Part shown: positions 1 through 8,212 of the stretch, piece after piece | Position numbering within the stretch: the stretch's first letter is position 1 | How the letters are laid out: every line of letters starts with the position of its first letter | Source: Gammaproteobacteria bacterium | Lineage (GTDB): Bacteria; Pseudomonadota; Gammaproteobacteria; Steroidobacterales; Rariloculaceae | NCBI GenBank assembly: GCA_029864465.1 | Contig: JAOTTJ010000001.1 | Span: 1 to 42,653 of the forward strand | Direction: 5' to 3' | Length of the DNA: 42,653 bases | Notes under the pieces: generated by a model | The model's input: only the letters and a program-made list of their open reading frames with translations | The model's database searches: none | Told to the model about the DNA's origin: nothing | Made by a program: the position numbers and the translations under genes

Positions 1-879
1 CTGCAGCCAATTGTTCGGCCGGTTTTCCTCGACGACGAAAAGCCCTTGTAGGCCCATCATGACGTGCACGTGCGGCTGCACGTGGCAGTGATAGAAGGCT
101 GTGCCGGCCGTGCGCGGTTGCACCTCATAGGTGCGCGCAGCGCCTGGCATGACGGGCACCTCGCTCGTGAACGGCACGCCGTCGTTGCCCTCGCCGTCGA
201 CGTCGACAAACGGATGATCGACGCCGTGCAGATGCACGGTGTGCGGCATGTAGTGACCGTTTTCGAGCGTGATGCGGATACGATCACCCTGCTCGACGCG
301 GATCGCCGGTGAAGGTAGGCGCAGCGACGGGCGTGCAGTCAGCGACTCGAAATTCTCTGTCGCCATCCCGACAAACTTTGGTGCAAACGCCCAGAAGCCG
401 GGCATGATGCCCGGCGCGATCGCGTATTGGGTCGCGGGCTCGGGCAGCTCTGGTGAGCCACCGTTGAGCTCGACGACCTCGAGGCGGATGTGAATCTCAT
501 CGGGGTCGCCGTCGCCGTCGAGGTCGGCGCCTTTCTCGACGGCATCGGCCGTCAGGCCGCTCGCCGCAAGTGTCTGCGCGGAGACGTTGTTCGTGCCGCG
601 CACGAAGGCAGCGACGGCGTAGGGATCATCCGCGATGCAGGTTGGTGACGGCAGGATCGCCACGCCGTCGATTGTCTGACCCTCGCGCCAGCCCGAGAGA
701 TCCTCGAGGCAGGCTGGCTCCGGCACGGCATCCTCGACCGACGTCGAGGCCGGCAACGGCTGGTAACCGCTCGCGCCGAACCACTCCGCCCATTGCGCCC
801 GCCACGTGCGCGGGTACCACTGCGGTGGCACGCTCAGCACCGCGATGCCGATGAGCCCGAGCAGCAGCCACCTTCTCAT
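1..879 (-). CDS. Multicopper oxidase / cupredoxin-domain protein; N-terminal 293 codons only, 3' end lies beyond the window start
   Basis: Not in the supplied ORF track because it has no stop inside the window. The minus-strand frame with codons at 1-3, 4-6 and so on has no stop from 879 down to 1. The ATG at 879..877 overlaps the upstream gene's stop (ATGA). The translation starts MRRWLLLGLIGIAVLSV (signal/TM-like). It contains HTVHLHG and, at the window edge, FYHCHVQPHVHVMMGLQG, which are the HxH and HCHxxxHxxxxM copper-ligand motifs of multicopper oxidases. Confidence 0.75.
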   Translation of the reverse strand, partial: MRRWLLLGLIGIAVLSVPPQWYPRTWRAQWAEWFGASGYQPLPASTSVEDAVPEPACLEDLSGWREGQTIDGVAILPSPTCIADDPYAVAAFVRGTNNVSAQTLAASGLTADAVEKGADLDGDGDPDEIHIRLEVVELNGGSPELPEPATQYAIAPGIMPGFWAFAPKFVGMATENFESLTARPSLRLPSPAIRVEQGDRIRITLENGHYMPHTVHLHGVDHPFVDVDGEGNDGVPFTSEVPVMPGAARTYEVQPRTAGTAFYHCHVQPHVHVMMGLQGLFVVEENRPNNWLQ

Positions 880-1502
880 CGTGAGGTCCCCATCGCAGCT
901 CGCGCATTGGCCCACCATCTTGCGGCCGTGCCCGTGGAGACGAGGTAGAGAAATTGCACGGCGATGCCGAGCAGTAGGAACAGCGGCAGCAGGCCCCAGT
1001 TCGTGCCGACCTCGAACGGGAAAACCGTCTCGTACGTTCGGCCCGTATCCGGATAGGTCGTCGTGACGATGCCGATGTACCAGCCGGGCGCGTCGAAGCG
1101 GTGCTCGACCGTGAAGACGGCTTCGCCGCGCACGGCCGCCGGCTCGTAGAAGACGGTTGCCGCGTCGAGATCCTCGATCGTTGCAACGTCCGCCAATCTC
1201 GCGAAGACACCGGCGCCGGTGACGTCGCGGATAATGCGAAAATCGAGCGGCATTTCCTTGAGGCTCGAGTGCAGGTACTCCATGACGAAGATCGTCTGCG
1301 TGACGTCGGGGACGTCCTCGCAGAACTCCTCGCTCGCGCGTGTTTCGGGTTGGTAGATCGTGAAATGAGCCGATAGAAAGCCCATGTTGATTACGCAGAT
1401 ATCCTCCTCGAGCACGACGCCGCCGTGCGCCTGTGCAGGCGGGCTCGATAGGCCCAGCCAGCAGGCGGCGATCAGCGCAGCGATAGCGGTGAATTTCGGC
1501 AT
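876..1502 (-). CDS. Hypothetical exported protein with a C-terminal membrane anchor, translationally coupled to the downstream multicopper oxidase
   Basis: 208-aa ORF. N-terminal signal peptide (MPKFTAIAALIAACWLGLSSPPAQA|HGGVV) and a C-terminal hydrophobic helix (WGLLPLFLLLGIAVQFLYLV). Its stop overlaps the oxidase ATG (ATGA at 876-879). I recognise no family. Confidence 0.6.
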   Translation of the reverse strand: MPKFTAIAALIAACWLGLSSPPAQAHGGVVLEEDICVINMGFLSAHFTIYQPETRASEEFCEDVPDVTQTIFVMEYLHSSLKEMPLDFRIIRDVTGAGVFARLADVATIEDLDAATVFYEPAAVRGEAVFTVEHRFDAPGWYIGIVTTTYPDTGRTYETVFPFEVGTNWGLLPLFLLLGIAVQFLYLVSTGTAARWWANARAAMGTSR

Positions 1503-1552
1503 TCGGAGCGAGTATCTGGCGAAAACGCCAATTATCGCAGTTCTCGTTTAAT

Positions 1553-1612
1553 GGAGTCAGAGCCGATTTAAGGAATCGGGCTCTGACCCGAACGATTGGG
1601 GCTCTGACCCCA
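1553..1612. repeat. REP-like intergenic element, locus A: three copies of the GGGTCAGAGC/GCTCTGACCC core forming an imperfect hairpin
   Basis: GGAGTCAGAGC (1553-1563, forward), GGGCTCTGACCC (1578-1589, reverse) and GGGGCTCTGACCCC (1598-1611, reverse). It lies in the divergent intergenic region between 1502 and 1680. The same core recurs at 6093-6160 and 17623-17640. Confidence 0.5.
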
Positions 1613-1679
1613 ACAGTTCTTCGTCGTTCGGCTTGTATTTGCTATCGTTCCAGGCCTACGGTGCCGACCGAGAATCGTT

Positions 1680-2537
1680 TTGGCAAGGTTCCTCAAAGAC
1701 CCACTCGTGCATTTCGTGCTGCTCGGCGCGGCGATCTTCGGGCTTTTCGCCGTCCTCGAGGATGATCCCGGCGCCGATGAGCGGCGCATTGTCATCCCCG
1801 AGGCCGAGATCGACGGCCTGTGGGGGGCTATGTCGATGCTCTACGGCCGCGCGCCGACCGAGGACGATATCGAGCAGCTCATCGAGCCGCGGATCCGCGA
1901 GGAGGTGCTGTACCGCGAGGCACTCGCGCTCGGGCTCGACCGGGACGACTCTCAGGTGCGCCAGCGGCTCGTCGAGAAAATGACCTTCCTGAGCGAGGAT
2001 CTCATTCCGGCCGAGCCGCCGAGCGATGCGGAGATTGCAGCGTTCTTCGAGACCAATCGCGAGGCCTTCGTCGAGCCCACGCGCGTGGACTTCGAGCAGC
2101 TCTATTTCAGCCCGAGCGCTCATGGTGACGGCATCATGGCTGCCGCCGAGGCTGCGCTCGAGGCGCTGGCCGACGGCGCCAATCCCGATGCGCTCGGTGA
2201 CTCGAGCACGGTGCCGCGCGTGCGCGCAGCTGCATCGGCCGAGGAGCTCAGCGCCGATCTCGGCGAGGAGTACGCGGCGGGCGTGATTGCGCTGCCGGCC
2301 GATCAGGCCTGGCACGGGCCGATCCGCTCATTTTTCGGCGTGCATCTCGTGCGCGTCACGGCGCGCACCGAAGCCCGAACGCCAGCGCTCGAGGAAATTC
2401 GTGAGCGGGTGGTCTCGGCGCTGAATGCCGAGCGCCGCCGCAATGCGAACGAGCAGTCCTATCGAGAGCTGCGCGGACGCTACGACATCATCATCGAGCT
2501 ACCCGAGGCAGTCAGGGAGGCATGGCAGTCCGAATGA
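1680..2537 (+). CDS. Parvulin-like peptidyl-prolyl isomerase family protein (PpiC/Rotamase_2 type), N-terminally membrane anchored
   Basis: 285-aa ORF with a TTG start. N-terminal hydrophobic segment (PLVHFVLLGAAIFGLFAVL). C-terminal GPIRSFFGVHLVRVTAR...EEIRERV resembles the parvulin/rotamase fold of this family. Its stop overlaps the next gene. Confidence 0.6.
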   Translation: MARFLKDPLVHFVLLGAAIFGLFAVLEDDPGADERRIVIPEAEIDGLWGAMSMLYGRAPTEDDIEQLIEPRIREEVLYREALALGLDRDDSQVRQRLVEKMTFLSEDLIPAEPPSDAEIAAFFETNREAFVEPTRVDFEQLYFSPSAHGDGIMAAAEAALEALADGANPDALGDSSTVPRVRAAASAEELSADLGEEYAAGVIALPADQAWHGPIRSFFGVHLVRVTARTEARTPALEEIRERVVSALNAERRRNANEQSYRELRGRYDIIIELPEAVREAWQSE

Positions 2538-3523
2538 GATGGGTCGTGCTCGCGGCGCTCGCGCTCGGCGCGAGCGCCACGCAGGCGCATGAGTTCAGTC
2601 CGGGCTTTCTCGGCTTCACCGAGCTCGAAGCAGACGTCTACCGTGTGCAATGGAAGGTTTCGTTGACGGGAGGGCTGGCCGAAGGACTCCTGCCGCAGCT
2701 GCCGGACGAGTGCACATTCACGGGCGAGCTCAGCGCGTACGTCATGGGCGATGCGCGTGTACAGCAACGGGACGTGCGCTGCGATGGCGGTCTTGCGGGA
2801 CGCACCGTCAGTATCGATGGGCTGCCTTCGACGATGACGGACGTGCTTGTGCGTATCGATTATCTCGACGGCGGCTCAGTCACACATCTGCTGACGCCGG
2901 CGGCGCCTGGCGTCGTTATCGCCGAGGCGCAAGGTGCGCTCGCGGTCGTCGTCACTTACGTCGTGCTCGGCACGGAGCACATTCTGATCGGCATCGATCA
3001 CCTCCTTTTCGTGCTCGCACTGTTGCTGCTCGTCAATGGCGTACGCCGGCTCATCATCACGGTTACGGCGTTCACGCTCGCACACAGCATCACGCTCGGC
3101 GCGGCGACGCTGGGTTTGGTCGATGTTCCCCAGGCGCCGGTCGAAGCAGTTATCGCACTCAGCATTTTATTCCTCGCCGCCGAGCTTGGCCGAAAGGCAG
3201 TGGGCTACGGTGACTCACACGATATCGCGCTCGAGTTTCCGTGGGTCGTCGCGTTCCTGTTCGGCCTGCTGCACGGCTTCGGATTTGCCGGTGCGCTCGC
3301 CGATGTCGGCCTACCGCCGCAAGCTGTGCCGCTCGCGCTGCTGTTTTTCAACGTCGGCGTCGAAATCGGCCAGCTCATTTTCATATTCGCCGTGCTCGGC
3401 CTCGCCTGGGCCTGGCGCCGTGTGCGGCTTCCGGCGCCGCCGGTCTGGCGCGTAGCGGCGGCCTACGGGATGGGATCGGTCGCAGCATTCTGGGTGTTCG
3501 ACCGCACAATCGGCGCGATTTGA
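2522..3523 (+). CDS. HupE/UreJ-family (HupE_UreJ_2-like) membrane protein
   Basis: 333-aa ORF. Signal peptide ...ASATQA|HEFSPGF, followed by a periplasmic domain and about six hydrophobic helices (HILIGIDHLLFVLALLLL..., FLFGLLHGFGFAGAL, LLFFNVGVEIGQLIF). An alternative ATG at 2534 forms an ATGA overlap with the upstream stop (2535-2537). Confidence 0.7.
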   Translation: MAVRMRWVVLAALALGASATQAHEFSPGFLGFTELEADVYRVQWKVSLTGGLAEGLLPQLPDECTFTGELSAYVMGDARVQQRDVRCDGGLAGRTVSIDGLPSTMTDVLVRIDYLDGGSVTHLLTPAAPGVVIAEAQGALAVVVTYVVLGTEHILIGIDHLLFVLALLLLVNGVRRLIITVTAFTLAHSITLGAATLGLVDVPQAPVEAVIALSILFLAAELGRKAVGYGDSHDIALEFPWVVAFLFGLLHGFGFAGALADVGLPPQAVPLALLFFNVGVEIGQLIFIFAVLGLAWAWRRVRLPAPPVWRVAAAYGMGSVAAFWVFDRTIGAI

Positions 3524-3633
3524 GCCTTCGCTGGGGATCGGAATGTGATCTGGATACGCTCAACCACAGGCGTATATTGTTATTTAAGGTGTGCCCTGCG
3601 AGGGCGTTTCGGGCCGAACCAGAGATCTCGACA

Positions 3634-6087
3634 ATGAACCACATCATCACGAGCCGCTGGGCTCACCTGGCCGGCGCACTTCTCACGCTGTTCGCGTTGC
3701 CTAGCTACGCGCAGGTCGAGTTCGGCGACGACCGCAGCGAGTGGGCTAACGATGGCGAGTGCGATGATCCGCGCTTCGTCGGCGGCGGCATGGCCGACGT
3801 GTTGCTCGATGAGGATCTCTACGCCGATGCGACCGACTGTCGCAGTCTGTTTGACGCCGGCCGTATTCGGCTTCGCGCTACCACGGGCGTGGAATTCGGT
3901 GACGACCGCAGCCAGTGGTCCAACGACGGCGACTGCGACGACCCGCGATTTGCCGGCAACGGTATGGCTGACGTGTTGCTCGATGAGGACCTCTACGCTG
4001 ATGCGACCGATTGCCGCAGCCTGTTCGAGGCCGGCCGGATTCGCCTACGCGATGCGCAAGGAGCCAGCACCGTATCGGCCGAAGAGGTCGATTTCGGTGA
4101 CGATTCCGGAGAGTGGACGCATGACGGTGAGTGCGATGATCCGCGTTTCGTCGGCGACGGCATGGCCAACATTCTGCTCGATGAGGATCGGCTTGCGGAT
4201 GCGACCGATTGCCGCACGCTATTCACCGCTGGCAGGATAACGTTGCGCACAGGTAACGCGGATTTTCGCGGTCGTGCATCGGCGACTGCGCTAACTCTCG
4301 GCGCCGAAGAGCGCGGTCGGCTCGAGTCCGGTGACGGCACTCTGGAGTCTGGCGAATACCGCGACTACTTCACGTTCGAGGGCGCAGAAGGCGACATCGC
4401 CGTGGTCGATCTGCGCTCGGAGGATTTCGATCCTTACCTGATCGTGCACACGCCGAGCGGCGAGCAGTTCGATAACGATGATTACGAGGGCGATATCTCG
4501 CGCTCGTTCCTGACGCTCCCGCTGATGGAGTCCGGGACGTATACCGTCGGCGTCACGAGCTATGACGCCGAAGAGACCGGCGACTACATGCTGCGCGTCG
4601 AGACCGAGGTCGACGATGGACAGGGCATGGGCACGATCGAGCGGGTGGGTGAGCTCGCCGAGGGAGATTCGACGCTCGACTCCGGCGAGTACGTCGATTC
4701 CTATGAGTTCATCGGGCGGCCCGGCGATCGTGTAACGATCGATCTACGCTCTGCTGATTTCGACACGTACGTCATGCTCGTCGAACCGAGCGGCGAGCAG
4801 CAGGAGAACGACGACGCCGACGATACGGGTCACAGCCGTATCGAGACGGCACTTTCCGAAACGGGTGTCTACGAGGTCATCGTCACGTCATACGAGCCCG
4901 GCGAGGTTGGCAACTATGAGCTCGTCATCGATCAGGTCGACGGGACGGGCATACAACCGAGCCGCGAACCCGGGACGCTGACGGTCGGACGCAATACGAG
5001 CGGTAGGCTCGAGTCGATCGACCTCGAATCGGAGACAGGGGCGTATCGCGATCTATTCGTCTTCGACGGCACGGCAGGCGAAAGCATCCGTGTCGAGATG
5101 AGCTCCGAAGATTTCGACACCTTTGTCGCATTAACGACACCCGGCGGTGACGTTATCGATAACGATGACTTCGAGGGCAGCACGGCGCGTTCGGTCGTCG
5201 AGCTCGAGCTGCCCGAGACCGGTCGCTACCGCGTCGCGGCAACGTCTTATGGCGCAGGTGAAACGGGCGCATACCGCCTGCTCGTCGATGCGCGTTCTGG
5301 ACCCGCGACGGTCCTCGGGCGCTCCGGCGAGCGCGGCCGCGGGCGCACGTACGGCATCTTCGCCGGGATCAGTGATTATCCGGGTACCGACAACGATCTC
5401 GAGTTCACGGCAGACGATGCGATTCGCGTACGCGACGCGCTGATACGCGGCGGCGGCATGCGGGCCGAGGATGCAGTCACGCTGACCGACGCCGATGCGA
5501 CAGTCGAGAATCTGCGAGACGCGATCGAAGGTCTAGCGGCGCAAGCCGGACCTCAGGATACGTTCGTGCTGTTCTATTCCGGACACGGCGACCGCGTGGA
5601 ACGTGCGGGTGGTCCAGAAGTCTTCGATCCCGATGCGCTCGATGAGACGCTAGAGCTTTACGATGACGCCGTTAGCGACGATGAGCTGCGCGTTATGCTC
5701 GACTCGGTCCGAGCGGGCACGACATTGCTGTTGCTCGATTCGTGCTTCAGCGGTGGATTCTCGAAGGATGTGATCTCTGTCCCTGGACGCATGGGCCTGT
5801 TCTCGTCGGAGGAAGATGTCACGTCGCAGGTTGCGGTCAAGTTCCGTGCCGGAGGGTATCTGTCGTTCTTTCTCGACGAGGCGATCGGTGATCGTCTAGC
5901 CGATGAGGACGGCAACGGCGACGTCACTGCCCTCGAGCTCAGCGAGTACGTGCACGCGCGCTATCGCGATGATATCAAGCCGGCTAGTACCGGAAACCTC
6001 GTTCGTGAGGGCGGCGCGCAATCGAGTTATCAACGCCTGGTCGTCGATCGCGGCAGCATCGGCCCGTACGATGTTCTTTTCCCCTAA
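3634..6087 (+). CDS. Secreted multidomain caspase-family (peptidase C14) protease: signal peptide, 3 Cys/Asp-rich repeats, 3 PPC-like (pre-peptidase C-terminal type) domains, caspase domain
   Basis: I use the ATG at 3634 (MNHIITSRWAHLAGALLTLFALPSYAQ|VEF, a clear signal peptide). The track's 3241 start overlaps the HupE gene. The caspase His-Cys dyad is present: FYSGHGD (His codon 5584-5586) and LLLDSCFSGG (Cys codon 5743-5745). Three ~100-aa repeats at 4291..5289 carry the pattern G.L...D..D.Y.F....G..V.IDL.S.DFD.Y..L..P.G.....DD, which is typical of PPC domains. Confidence 0.8.
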   Translation: MNHIITSRWAHLAGALLTLFALPSYAQVEFGDDRSEWANDGECDDPRFVGGGMADVLLDEDLYADATDCRSLFDAGRIRLRATTGVEFGDDRSQWSNDGDCDDPRFAGNGMADVLLDEDLYADATDCRSLFEAGRIRLRDAQGASTVSAEEVDFGDDSGEWTHDGECDDPRFVGDGMANILLDEDRLADATDCRTLFTAGRITLRTGNADFRGRASATALTLGAEERGRLESGDGTLESGEYRDYFTFEGAEGDIAVVDLRSEDFDPYLIVHTPSGEQFDNDDYEGDISRSFLTLPLMESGTYTVGVTSYDAEETGDYMLRVETEVDDGQGMGTIERVGELAEGDSTLDSGEYVDSYEFIGRPGDRVTIDLRSADFDTYVMLVEPSGEQQENDDADDTGHSRIETALSETGVYEVIVTSYEPGEVGNYELVIDQVDGTGIQPSREPGTLTVGRNTSGRLESIDLESETGAYRDLFVFDGTAGESIRVEMSSEDFDTFVALTTPGGDVIDNDDFEGSTARSVVELELPETGRYRVAATSYGAGETGAYRLLVDARSGPATVLGRSGERGRGRTYGIFAGISDYPGTDNDLEFTADDAIRVRDALIRGGGMRAEDAVTLTDADATVENLRDAIEGLAAQAGPQDTFVLFYSGHGDRVERAGGPEVFDPDALDETLELYDDAVSDDELRVMLDSVRAGTTLLLLDSCFSGGFSKDVISVPGRMGLFSSEEDVTSQVAVKFRAGGYLSFFLDEAIGDRLADEDGNGDVTALELSEYVHARYRDDIKPASTGNLVREGGAQSSYQRLVVDRGSIGPYDVLFP
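3715..4248 (+). repeat. Coding tandem repeat (3 units starting 3715, 3889, 4087) within the caspase gene
   Basis: Units read VEFGDDRSEWANDGECDDPRFVGGGMADVLLDEDLYADATDCRSLFDAGRIRLR, VEFGDDRSQWSNDGDCDDPRFAGNGMADVLLDEDLYADATDCRSLFEAGRIRLR and VDFGDDSGEWTHDGECDDPRFVGDGMANILLDEDRLADATDCRTLFTAGRITLR. Each unit has two conserved Cys. Units 1 and 2 are also clearly similar at the DNA level. Confidence 0.85.
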
Positions 6088-6092
6088 TTACC

Positions 6093-6160
6093 GGGGTCAG
6101 AGTCATTGCCGGAGTCAGAGTAAGAATTGCGGTCTGAACCGCAATTCTTACTCTGACTCC
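6093..6160. repeat. REP-like intergenic element, locus B, containing a perfect 23-bp stem / 4-nt loop hairpin; probably also the caspase gene terminator
   Basis: GGGGTCAGAGT at 6093-6103. GGAGTCAGAGTAAGAATTGCGGT (6111-6133), loop CTGA, then ACCGCAATTCTTACTCTGACTCC (6138-6160), an exact reverse complement. It begins 6 nt after the stop at 6087. Confidence 0.65.
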
Positions 6161-6222: not shown

Positions 6223-7035
6223 ATGAACGTGATCGCGTTACTGGCGGCCCATCTCGTTGCGCTGCAGGGCCAGGCCGTGCAGCTCAGCCAGACGCACGAG
6301 CCGGGTCTGGAAGCCGTCGAGGTCCGTTGGAACGATCACACCATTCCTTACGTGCGCCGTGAGTCCGAATGGATTACGGTCGTCGGGATCGATCTCGACA
6401 CGCGGGCGGGGGCGTACCCCGCCGAGATCGAGCTCGAGTTTGCAGACGGCAGGACTGCGACGCGAACGGACACGATCGAGGTCCGTAGCAAGGAATTTCG
6501 CACGACAGAGCTCACGGTCGCGCCGGGTTACGTCGAGCTCAGCCCGGAGGATCAGGAACGCGCTGCGCGCGAGCGGCGCGAGATCGCGGCCGTTTACTCG
6601 AAATTAACGCCGACCGCGCATTGGTCTGAGCCATTCGCCGTGCCGATCCCGGGCGTCGAGGGTGGGCGCAATTTCGGCCACCGGCGTGTCTTCAACGGTC
6701 AGCCGCGCGCGCCGCATTCGGGCGCCGATCTTCGCGCGGCTACGGGCACCCAGATTCGTGCCGCGAATACCGGCACGGTCGTGCTGGCGAAAAATTTATT
6801 CTTCAGCGGCAACGCCGTGTTCGTTGATCACGGGCTCGGTGTCTTTTCGACGTATCTGCATCTATCCGAGATCAACGTCGACGTCGGTGATACGGTCGAG
6901 CGCGGTCAGGTTATCGGTCTGGCGGGCGCAACGGGTCGCGTCACGGGCCCGCATCTGCACTGGGGCGTACGCGTGCTCGATGCGCGCGTGGATCCGTTCT
7001 CGCTGTTGAGCCTCGATACGCCCGTGGTTCAGTGA
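6223..7035 (+). CDS. M23-family (LytM-type) metallopeptidase
   Basis: 270-aa ORF with a GAGGAGG Shine-Dalgarno sequence upstream. M23 zinc motifs are present: HSGAD (HxxxD), then VFVDHGLGVFSTYLHLSEI and TGPHLHWGV (HxH). Confidence 0.85.
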   Translation: MNVIALLAAHLVALQGQAVQLSQTHEPGLEAVEVRWNDHTIPYVRRESEWITVVGIDLDTRAGAYPAEIELEFADGRTATRTDTIEVRSKEFRTTELTVAPGYVELSPEDQERAARERREIAAVYSKLTPTAHWSEPFAVPIPGVEGGRNFGHRRVFNGQPRAPHSGADLRAATGTQIRAANTGTVVLAKNLFFSGNAVFVDHGLGVFSTYLHLSEINVDVGDTVERGQVIGLAGATGRVTGPHLHWGVRVLDARVDPFSLLSLDTPVVQ

Positions 7036-7104: not shown

Positions 7105-7719
7105 TTGGCATCCATGGTGATGGAGATCAGGCGCCGCTTTGCACGTATGGCCGGGGCCGCGATTGTGGCCGTCTCGGTATGGTCGTTGGCCGCTGTGAGC
7201 TCGGCTCAAGGTTGGATCGACTATGTCGATCTCGAGCAGCGATTTCGCATCAACCTGCCCCACGAGCCCGCCGTGGAGGATTCGGCCTTCCTCGGCGAGT
7301 ATGGCGACGAGCTACCGGTGCGGATCTATACGGCCTCGGATGGGATCAGCGACTACAAGGTCAGTGTGATCGACTACCGCAGCGCCGGCGTTACGGAGAA
7401 TCGCGCGTCGATCGCGTTCCAGGCCCTGCAATACCGGCGCCGGGGTGGTGAGGTTACGCACGATGCGTATGCCCAGATCGACCGGATCGAAGGCCATCAG
7501 CTGCAGATCACGAACCCTGATCAGAGTCGCACGTTCGTCGCGATCCACCTGCACCGCGGGCGCCTGTATGTCGTCGAGGCGAATGCGCCGCCGGGCGCGC
7601 CGCCGCCGGGGCTCGTCCAGCAGTCGCTCGTCATGCTCGATGAGTATGGTAATCACGTGCGCTACGAGCTCGATGCCGACGGCAACCGCGCGCGCGCGCG
7701 GACCGTCGAGGCGGATTGA
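7105..7719 (+). CDS. Hypothetical secreted protein
   Basis: 204-aa ORF. TTG start 5 nt after GGGGAG. Signal peptide (AAIVAVSVWSLAAVSSAQG). I recognise no family. Confidence 0.5.
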   Translation: MASMVMEIRRRFARMAGAAIVAVSVWSLAAVSSAQGWIDYVDLEQRFRINLPHEPAVEDSAFLGEYGDELPVRIYTASDGISDYKVSVIDYRSAGVTENRASIAFQALQYRRRGGEVTHDAYAQIDRIEGHQLQITNPDQSRTFVAIHLHRGRLYVVEANAPPGAPPPGLVQQSLVMLDEYGNHVRYELDADGNRARARTVEAD

Positions 7720-7840
7720 ACTGTGACAGGCGCAAGGGCTTCTCGTCTATCGATCGGCATTGTCCGCCGTTGTGCGAGGATCTATGCTCTTAGCGATGCG
7801 TGCGCAAGGTGAGCCGCTCTCGAACGAGGTCGTGAATAAC

Positions 7841-8212
7841 ATGCGATACACAGCCGTCAGTTTCATCGTCGCTTTCGTGCTCTCGCTGGCCGTGCCGGCG
7901 TCGGCGCATCACTCGCATGCGAACTACGCACAGCGAGACTGGGTCGAGCTCGAGGGCACCATCACGAACGTGCACTGGATGAATCCACACGTCTGGATCT
8001 ATCTCGAGGTCATGGGCGAGAGCGGCAAGCCCGTCGTCTGGGCGATGGAGGGCGGCAGCATCGCCGCGCTGACCGAGGGCGGCTGGCAGCCCGACAGCGT
8101 GCAGGTGGGCGATAAGATCTCGGCACGGTGCATGCCGCTCAAAGACGGTTCCTCGGGCTGTCTGCTCGGTTACCTGACGACCGACGAGCACGAAGACAAA
8201 GAGTTCGACTAA
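7841..8212 (+). CDS. Small exported HHS/W-x-NPH protein (DUF6152-like), copy 1 of 4
   Basis: Internal ATG at 7841 gives MRYTAVSFIVAFVLSLAVPASA|HHSHANYAQRDWVELEGTITNVHWMNPHVWIYLEV. This is a signal peptide followed by HHS and W-x-NPH motifs, both shared with 11081..11455, 26235.. and 35896... The DUF6152 assignment is from memory of that family's N-terminal pattern. Confidence 0.7.
   Translation: MRYTAVSFIVAFVLSLAVPASAHHSHANYAQRDWVELEGTITNVHWMNPHVWIYLEVMGESGKPVVWAMEGGSIAALTEGGWQPDSVQVGDKISARCMPLKDGSSGCLLGYLTTDEHEDKEFD

Follow-up and report, generated by a model that had tools for sequence, protein, structure and literature searches.

A predicted exported metacaspase-type protease with PPC domains and an uncatalogued Cys-pair repeat in a gammaproteobacterium of the Rariloculaceae

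The stretch of DNA analysed here, 42,653 nucleotides (nt) long and referred to below as the window, comprises positions 1 to 42,653 of contig JAOTTJ010000001.1 and comes from a 3.5-Mb metagenome-assembled genome (MAG) of 496 contigs, assigned to the Rariloculaceae within the Gammaproteobacteria. At 3634-6087 on its forward strand, stop codon included, the list of open reading frames (ORFs) of the window contains one uninterrupted frame with 817 codons, for which Pfam, PDB and homolog searches support a metacaspase-type protease of 817 amino acids (P0001) that is predicted to be exported. What is new here is that a C14B metacaspase domain has been recruited into an architecture in the style of secreted proteases, together with an undescribed accessory module.

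The gene and its modules

The ATG at 3634 is taken as the start codon because the homologs have their N-termini at the position of Met1, and the longer ORF from GTG 3241 was rejected, as it would read, in a different frame, through the 3′ end of the HupE gene that lies upstream. A candidate sigma-70-like promoter, TGGATA-16-TATATT, recognised by consensus match only, is found on the same strand at 3551..3578, 56 nt 5′ of the ATG. Past the stop codon, a repetitive extragenic palindromic (REP)-like element occupies window positions 6087-6160 and consists of a tandem 18-mer (6087-6121) and a perfect hairpin with a 20-bp stem (6112..6159), which on sequence inspection is the probable end of the transcription unit. 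The promoter-like site and the strong hairpin 3′ of the stop codon suggest that the protease gene forms a transcription unit of its own.

The protein opens with a signal peptide of the Sec/signal peptidase I (SPase-I) type at residues 1-26 (3634..3711), predicted to be cleaved between SYA and QV and recognised by sequence features, by conservation among homologs and by a helix over residues 3-20 in the AlphaFold2 model. Three acidic repeats, each with a pair of cysteines, come next: repeat 1 at residues 28-81 (3715..3876; C43 and C69), detected as a DNA and protein repeat; repeat 2 at residues 86-139 (3889..4050; C101 and C127), 83% identical to repeat 1; and repeat 3 at residues 152-205 (4087..4248; C167 and C193), detected as a protein repeat. 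AlphaFold2 gives a fold for all three as well. They are followed by three beta-sandwiches of the PPC or collagen-binding-domain (CBD) kind at residues 216-327 (4279..4614), 332-437 (4627..4944) and 444-554 (4963..5295), the last with its best Pfam stretch at 472-536. The remaining residues, 569-817 (5338..6084), form the C14 metacaspase-type catalytic domain, a p20 with a contiguous p10-like part, in which the codons of catalytic His651 and Cys704 lie at 5584..5586 and 5743..5745, respectively. All these features are on the forward strand.

Pfam recognised PPC (PF04151) in three stretches with 55.3 bits against a cut-off of 25.9 (E 1.2e-14) and Peptidase_C14 (PF00656) at residues 578-711 with 41.3 bits against 21.4 (E 1.9e-10); in a profile search of the source genome the C14 domain scores 44.3 bits. 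The sole NCBIfam match, to the EACC1-associated caspase model NF047832, reached 53.3 bits and stays below the cut-off of 140. An AlphaFold2 model of the whole protein, built on 60 homologs, has a mean predicted local distance difference test score (pLDDT) of 79.6 and a predicted template-modelling score (pTM) of 0.38, with confident domains (pLDDT about 90 for C14) joined by low-confidence linkers. The repeats are modelled as small alpha/beta units, the PPC stretches as three beta-sandwiches and the C14 domain as an alpha/beta caspase fold, and Foldseek matched the tandem CBD of ColG (5iku, E 8e-9). According to the model, the mature protein would be a string of independently folded modules, for which a pTM of 0.38 is as expected of beads on a string; at this pTM, inter-domain packing and autoinhibition are not readable from the model. 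A sequence-only reading of the same DNA had proposed a signal peptide, three repeats of an unknown kind and three PPC-like domains. The PPC domains are borne out by the three Pfam stretches and the three modelled sandwiches, the tandem repeats are confirmed and have no match in Pfam, NCBIfam or the PDB, and the predicted signal peptide has its n-, h- and c-regions as well as comparable signals across the homologs.

Catalytic residues and export

The catalytic dyad, which the sequence-only reading had called intact, is carried by the motifs YSGHG (residues 648-652) and DSCFSGG (702-708). Both motifs are present, and H651 and C704 align with H86 and C139 of Arabidopsis metacaspase-4 (AtMC4, 6W8S), matched at E 9e-12 by phmmer against the PDB. 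The family profile retrieved GSU0716 (E 3e-19) and AtMC4 (E 1e-18) from the PDB, and also Yca1, C. glabrata MCA-I (CgMCA-I), AtMC9 and T. brucei MCA2 (TbMCA2). The top Foldseek match was CgMCA-I (E 1.4e-10), with template-modelling (TM) scores of 0.59-0.65 over 260-275 columns, followed by GSU0716 and Yca1; entry 7qp1 gave a TM score of 0.65 over 268 columns (E 1.5e-10) and 4f6o one of 0.59. Because these alignments span about 270 columns of type I metacaspases, both p20 and p10 are present in the domain. Pfam, sequence-to-PDB and fold searches thus all support the C14 fold that had been proposed, and as judged from sequence and model the catalytic domain is a C14B-type metacaspase with an intact dyad. 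The prodomain of eukaryotic type I enzymes, Pro/Gln-rich or LSD1 zinc-finger, is absent, the N-terminus being made up of the signal peptide, three repeats and three PPC domains.

A second C14 paralog was found in the source genome (G000:C186:122-823; L084, 2-979, forward strand), cut by the contig end. It has the motifs TYAGHG and DSCHSG, is 39% identical to the C14 domain of the window over the core, is free of PPC in the preserved part and is apparently not exported.

For the residues around the dyad, roles were transferred from the literature on TbMCA2 and CgMCA-I, and conservation was counted over 60 homologs. The S1 pocket of TbMCA2 comprises Cys92, Asp95, Ser156/159 and Asp211 (PMC6426788), and its Ca2+ ligands D173, D189, D190 and D220 are equivalent to D198, D214, D215 and D245 of CgMCA-I (PMC9622860). 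The S1 positions correspond here to T592 (Cys92), D595 (Asp95), S649 (Ser156) and D702 (Asp211, at Cys-2), all found in 60/60 homologs, as are H651 and C704. Among the ligand positions, D670 (D173) and D682 (D189) are likewise found in 60/60 and D683 (D190) in 59/60, and the D220 position is taken by K711, then D712 (both 60/60). Ca2+ probably stabilises or activates the enzyme, to judge from these residues. Since the dyad and the acidic Asp residues of the S1 pocket (D595 and D702) are invariant, Arg/Lys-directed cleavage is predicted, metacaspase enzymology leading one to expect Arg or Lys at P1 rather than Asp. The same counts bear on the possibility that the protein is a catalytically dead binding protein, which deserves mention as pseudo-orthocaspases are common in bacteria. 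Nevertheless, the known pseudo-variants swap the dyad for Tyr/Ser (PMC6426788), while in this family the His and Cys of the dyad and every S1 residue are the same in 60/60 homologs, and we regard loss of activity as highly improbable.

Between p20 and p10 there is only a very short connection, with an invariant S-x-PGRMG inside; R719 is, as far as can be inferred, a candidate autoprocessing site. A site in the linker between the third PPC domain and C14 was also considered and set aside, as this linker varies among the homologs and has in R571 (40/60) its one position of moderate conservation, which is not decisive.

The N-terminus, with MNHIITSRWAHLAGALLTLFALPSYA ahead of the predicted cleavage and QVEF behind it, shows a basic n-region, a hydrophobic core of 11 residues and a small-x-small c-region, and contains neither a twin-Arg motif nor a lipobox Cys. 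The signals of the homologs differ in sequence but are equivalent, ending in ASAQ, AYAQ or HAQ. These features and their conservation among homologs are the basis on which the protein is predicted to cross the inner membrane by a Sec/SPase-I signal. The distribution of cysteines was also considered. Seven are present, two in each of the three repeats and the catalytic one, and in most homologs the count is twice the repeat number plus one (mostly odd), with extra cysteines in signal peptides; this is the pattern that would be expected for disulfide-bonded extracytoplasmic modules. An N-terminal signal is likewise present in every other repeat-carrying protein examined. The source genome encodes GspL, a component of the type II secretion system (T2SS), detected by profile search at E 4e-28, and thus offers a way through the outer membrane. 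The predicted site of action of the protease is either the periplasm or the outside of the cell.

Most prokaryotic C14 proteins are without export signals (PMC3501461), and a cytoplasmic executioner of cell death or defence, of the classical orthocaspase kind and with an N-terminal hydrophobic stretch that is not a functional signal, would also agree with the weak, sub-threshold EACC1-associated caspase match (53 bits). However, the signal peptide with its AxA-type site is conserved throughout the family, the paired cysteines are confined to the repeats, the PPC domains and all repeat-bearing relatives belong to exported proteins, and an NTPase, a sensor and an EACC1 partner are all absent at the locus. 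We give very little credence to a cytoplasmic role.

Taken together, these results favour a stand-alone Sec-exported cysteine endopeptidase of metacaspase type (MEROPS C14B-like), predicted to be Arg/Lys-directed and to act outside the cytoplasm, most likely via the T2SS; we put the probability of this reading at roughly 0.6. The SPase-I signal peptide would carry the protein across the inner membrane, and release would most likely follow through the genome-encoded secretion system. The enzyme would then cleave after Arg/Lys, with Ca2+ as a stabiliser or activator, while the PPC modules and repeats may act as Ca2+-loaded binding or spacer modules, so that the whole would function as a substrate-binding endopeptidase for proteinaceous material outside the cytoplasm.

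The repeat, the family and its gene neighbourhoods

In the N-terminal coding region the DNA itself shows a tandem repeat with a period of 174 and 84% matches. Alignment of 56 diverse copies of the encoded module gave the consensus FGDDxSxWxNDGECDDPRFxGxG...DAxDC...G.I.L. and the invariant positions G5, C17, D18, D19, R21, F22, G24, D39, D42 and C43. The module has about 55 residues with two cysteines, and a single repeat modelled alone reached a pLDDT of 94.9 and a pTM of 0.80. At permissive E-values, Pfam and NCBIfam returned only sub-threshold noise (tRNA-synt_1c_C, Arg_decarb_HB); a profile search of the PDB gave 0 matches at E<=10, Foldseek of the repeat model against the PDB nothing significant (best E 5, probability 0.07), and a literature search on the motif CDDPRF only an unrelated hCG-beta peptide. 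Sequence and model mark the repeat as a domain in its own right, absent from the catalogues. The invariant Asp residues next to its two cysteines suggest a Ca2+ site locked by a disulfide. The array appears to be dynamic, as repeats 1 and 2 are so nearly identical and the copy number varies from 1 to 4 in the caspase family.

An exhaustive hidden Markov model search of 1.84 billion representatives found 743 repeat-bearing proteins at E <= 0.001. Many of the carriers, encoded in Devosia, Erythrobacter, Rhodobacteraceae and Hyphomicrobiales, are exported proteins that consist of the repeat only, in 2-17 copies. Elsewhere the repeat is fused to Trypsin_2, Trypsin_2 + PG_binding_1, subtilase S8, OmpA + PG_binding_1, SH3_3, a Ser/Thr kinase, ankyrin repeats or DUF4384, and these fusion partners suggest a generic extracytoplasmic role in binding or spacing. 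The repeat, which spans 743 clusters, has a confidently predicted fold and lacks any known relative, could be entered as a domain family of its own. In a complete genome of the same order, a repeat-bearing frame with one in-frame TAG (G047:C1:688819-689403) is located a few hundred bases past the caspase homolog (686473-688452), so the repeat module can sit in a neighbouring or decayed gene.

In a word-indexed search the whole protein matched over 1,000 clusters; of the 120 that scored best, most combine PPC with C14 in 680-1,240 residues, under annotated names such as 'pre-peptidase C-terminal domain-containing protein' and 'caspase family protein'. Their sources are mainly uncultured marine Gammaproteobacteria (Woeseiaceae, Rariloculaceae, Pseudomonadales and SAR86-labelled), with Gemmatimonadales as well. 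The nearest relative (L001; 86% identity) belongs to a gammaproteobacterial MAG from sand sediment. Within its own order the gene is sporadic, being found in 3/121 genomes at E <= 1e-50. The sequence-only reading had considered an extracytoplasmic caspase-fold protease uncommon, which is overstated in view of the number of clusters and of the exported prokaryotic metacaspases reported in 2012: a survey of that year counted about 15% of prokaryotic metacaspases with transmembrane or signal-like helices and about 30 extracellular architectures (PMC3501461), and a secreted Bradyrhizobium caspase-YARHG protein was noted (PMC3355149). PPC is unmentioned in the 2012 metacaspase survey (PMC3501461), and in the literature searched we found neither a publication pairing 'metacaspase' with 'pre-peptidase C-terminal' nor a biochemical study of any family member.

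Studies of metacaspases and orthocaspases have dealt almost wholly with cell death and stress signalling inside the cell. A family that is large, conserved in sequence and evidently built for work outside the cytoplasm points to a second role of the caspase fold in bacteria, probably degradative or envelope-processing. Woeseiaceae possess rich peptidase repertoires (PMC12175321), and since the family is concentrated in uncultured Gammaproteobacteria of marine sediments or particles, such as Woeseiaceae, it may have a part in turning over protein in marine sediments.

The flanking genes of HupE type and of M23 type, as named in the sequence-only reading, were identified by Pfam as HupE_UreJ_2 upstream (2522-3523, E 5e-46) and Peptidase_M23 downstream (6223-7035, E 6e-30). 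Window positions 1-3523 hold a multicopper oxidase gene and that of a 208-residue partner on the minus strand, divergent from the genes of a peptidyl-prolyl isomerase (Rotamase_2) and of HupE_UreJ_2, which overlap by 16 nt (2522-2537). This block is syntenic only in L001-L003 and is retained down to about 58% identity, and the M23 neighbour is conserved in none of the homolog contexts examined. A functional link to HupE or M23 was rejected, as the former block is found only in close relatives and the latter is not kept. Further downstream, 7105-8212 encodes a 204-residue protein without Pfam or NCBIfam match and then a DUF6152 protein; a pair related to these two genes also occurs in L003 (9634-11396).

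In a clade of about 50% GC (51% identity; L004, L006, L081 and L087), the homolog always lies between uvrA and a convergent gene of an exported M14 carboxypeptidase. In a member from Gemmatimonadales (L086) it adjoins two M16 peptidase genes and a Trypsin_2 gene, and another homolog has a PLD gene on one side and an ABC transporter on the other. Peptidase genes thus recur beside the homologs, but of different families, and no partner gene is conserved across the contexts examined. A defence-system context was considered and rejected, as PADLOC matched only the generic 'caspase' model (E 3e-12) and the neighbours were without matches. As the neighbourhood is unconserved and the PADLOC match is generic only, the protein appears to be an autonomous accessory enzyme.

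The distribution and the contexts also bear on the suggestion that the protein is not a nutritional protease but an exported weapon or interaction factor against competing bacteria, protists or algae. Its sporadic occurrence, modular binding domains of variable repeat number (1 to 4) and literature speculation on extracellular metacaspases acting on neighbouring cells (PMC3501461) would be in keeping with such a role. Against it, none of the contexts examined has a neighbouring gene for immunity or for a secretion system, or a toxin-delivery domain, and the PADLOC call is a generic one; we judge the suggestion improbable.

A more serious competitor, although still an unlikely one, is a periplasmic protease of envelope processing or quality control, which would be held near peptidoglycan or envelope proteins by its repeats and PPC domains and would cut specific envelope proteins, not bulk protein outside the cell. 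The fusions of the repeat to OmpA + PG_binding_1, SH3_3, Trypsin_2 + PG_binding_1 and DUF4384 are consistent with it; however, subtilase S8 is among its fusion partners too, and the repeat builds large secreted proteins on its own. No outer-membrane sorting signal is recognisable in the protein and two-Cys modules suit an oxidising periplasm, but PPC is typical of proteases released from the cell, as indicated by the Pfam family description and the ColG match. The downstream M23 gene, of the LytM type, would fit an envelope function, yet it is an unconserved neighbour, and occurrence in only 3 of the 121 genomes is easier to reconcile with an accessory enzyme than with a core housekeeping function in the envelope.

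Substrate preference and comparison with known systems

A further indication for the preferred reading, a released Arg/Lys-directed endopeptidase, comes from the amino acid composition. The mature protein contains 174 Asp+Glu, 61 Arg and 3 Lys, and the three Lys, all in the C14 domain, are conserved among the homologs (K711 and K782 in 60/60, K736 in 59/60). These three columns account for 179 of the 344 Lys of the 60 homologs. In genomes of 48-52% GC, the homologs have 0.6-0.85% Lys versus 4.4-4.5% in their neighbours (Fisher p 2e-9 to 3e-8), that is, 5- to 7-fold less, with gene GC and GC at third codon positions (GC3) equal to the local values, and their Arg equals that of the neighbours (5.3-5.6% versus 5.4-5.6%). 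The exported M14 neighbour has 3.1-3.3% Lys and the apparently non-exported C14 paralog of the source genome 5.5%. As a descriptive figure from related sequences, the signal region that is cleaved off is 4.5-fold denser in Lys than the remaining mature sequence. Genome composition or transfer from a high-GC donor was rejected as the cause of the scarcity, because GC and GC3 are local and yet Lys is far below the neighbours. Selection against Lys in the mature enzyme is suggested, the simplest functional reading being that Lys is the preferred P1 and that self-cleavage sites would have been purged. Such a purge amounts to a concrete prediction of specificity.

Many proteins of the window are themselves very poor in Lys (0-1.4% K, K/(K+R) <= 0.2), beyond the usual effect of 62% GC, and several of these are exported or membrane proteins.

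Several observations weigh against the preferred reading in one part or another. The fourth Ca2+-ligand site (D220 in TbMCA2) holds an invariant Lys, K711, beside the invariant Asp, D712, and Ca2+ dependence is not assured because K711 replaces the fourth ligand Asp. Arg is undepleted, although most studied metacaspases accept Arg. The homolog statistics are not phylogenetically independent, and a halophile-like surface, acidic and cation-binding, could be behind the avoidance of Lys instead. The OmpA, PG_binding_1 and SH3_3 partners of the repeat suit a periplasmic, cell-wall-facing location equally well. A bolder extension of the preferred reading is put forward only tentatively and is itself doubtful: a Lys-directed extracellular metacaspase that would survive its own activity by a nearly Lys-free mature sequence, in which K711 could change or replace control by Ca2+, and which would be delivered by a disulfide-locked Ca2+-binding module common to unrelated classes of exported proteases.

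Among characterised enzymes, type I metacaspases (CgMCA-I, 7QP0/7QP1; Yca1, 4F6O; TbMCA2, 4AF8) and AtMC4 share with the protein the fold over p20 and p10, the YSGHG/DSCxSGG context of the dyad, both S1 Asp residues and three of the Ca2+-ligand Asp residues. These eukaryotic enzymes are, however, cytosolic and have Pro/Gln-rich or zinc-finger prodomains, whereas here a signal peptide and six extracytoplasmic modules precede the catalytic domain, the p20-p10 connection is very short and the fourth Ca2+-ligand position is an invariant Lys. The orthocaspases MaOC1 (Microcystis) and GSU0716 (Geobacter, PDB 3BIJ) are bacterial C14 proteins with an acidic S1 pocket, as in the present case, but the characterised prokaryotic orthocaspases are cytoplasmic or without export modules, and none has PPC or the Cys-pair repeat.

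Gingipains (C25) and clostripain (C11) are exported Cys proteases of the caspase-hemoglobinase fold, Arg- or Lys-specific, with adhesin or Ig-like accessory domains. The protein described here differs from them in that C14B metacaspases are what it matches, in sequence as in fold, and in having no C-terminal domain of the type IX secretion system. For the N-terminal repeat, the LDL-receptor class A and similar Ca2+ modules offer an analogy only: like them, the repeat is a small tandem module, with invariant Asp near Cys (C-D-D, D-x-x-D-C), but it has two Cys rather than six and no sequence or fold match in the PDB. The overall architecture comes nearest to that of secreted PPC/CBD proteases (ColG and the Vibrio and Pseudoalteromonas metallo- and serine proteases), which likewise combine a signal peptide with tandem Ca2+-binding sandwiches of the PPC fold. 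In contrast to these, the catalytic domain is a clan CD Cys protease and not M9, M4 or S8, and the PPC modules stand N-terminal to it rather than C-terminal.

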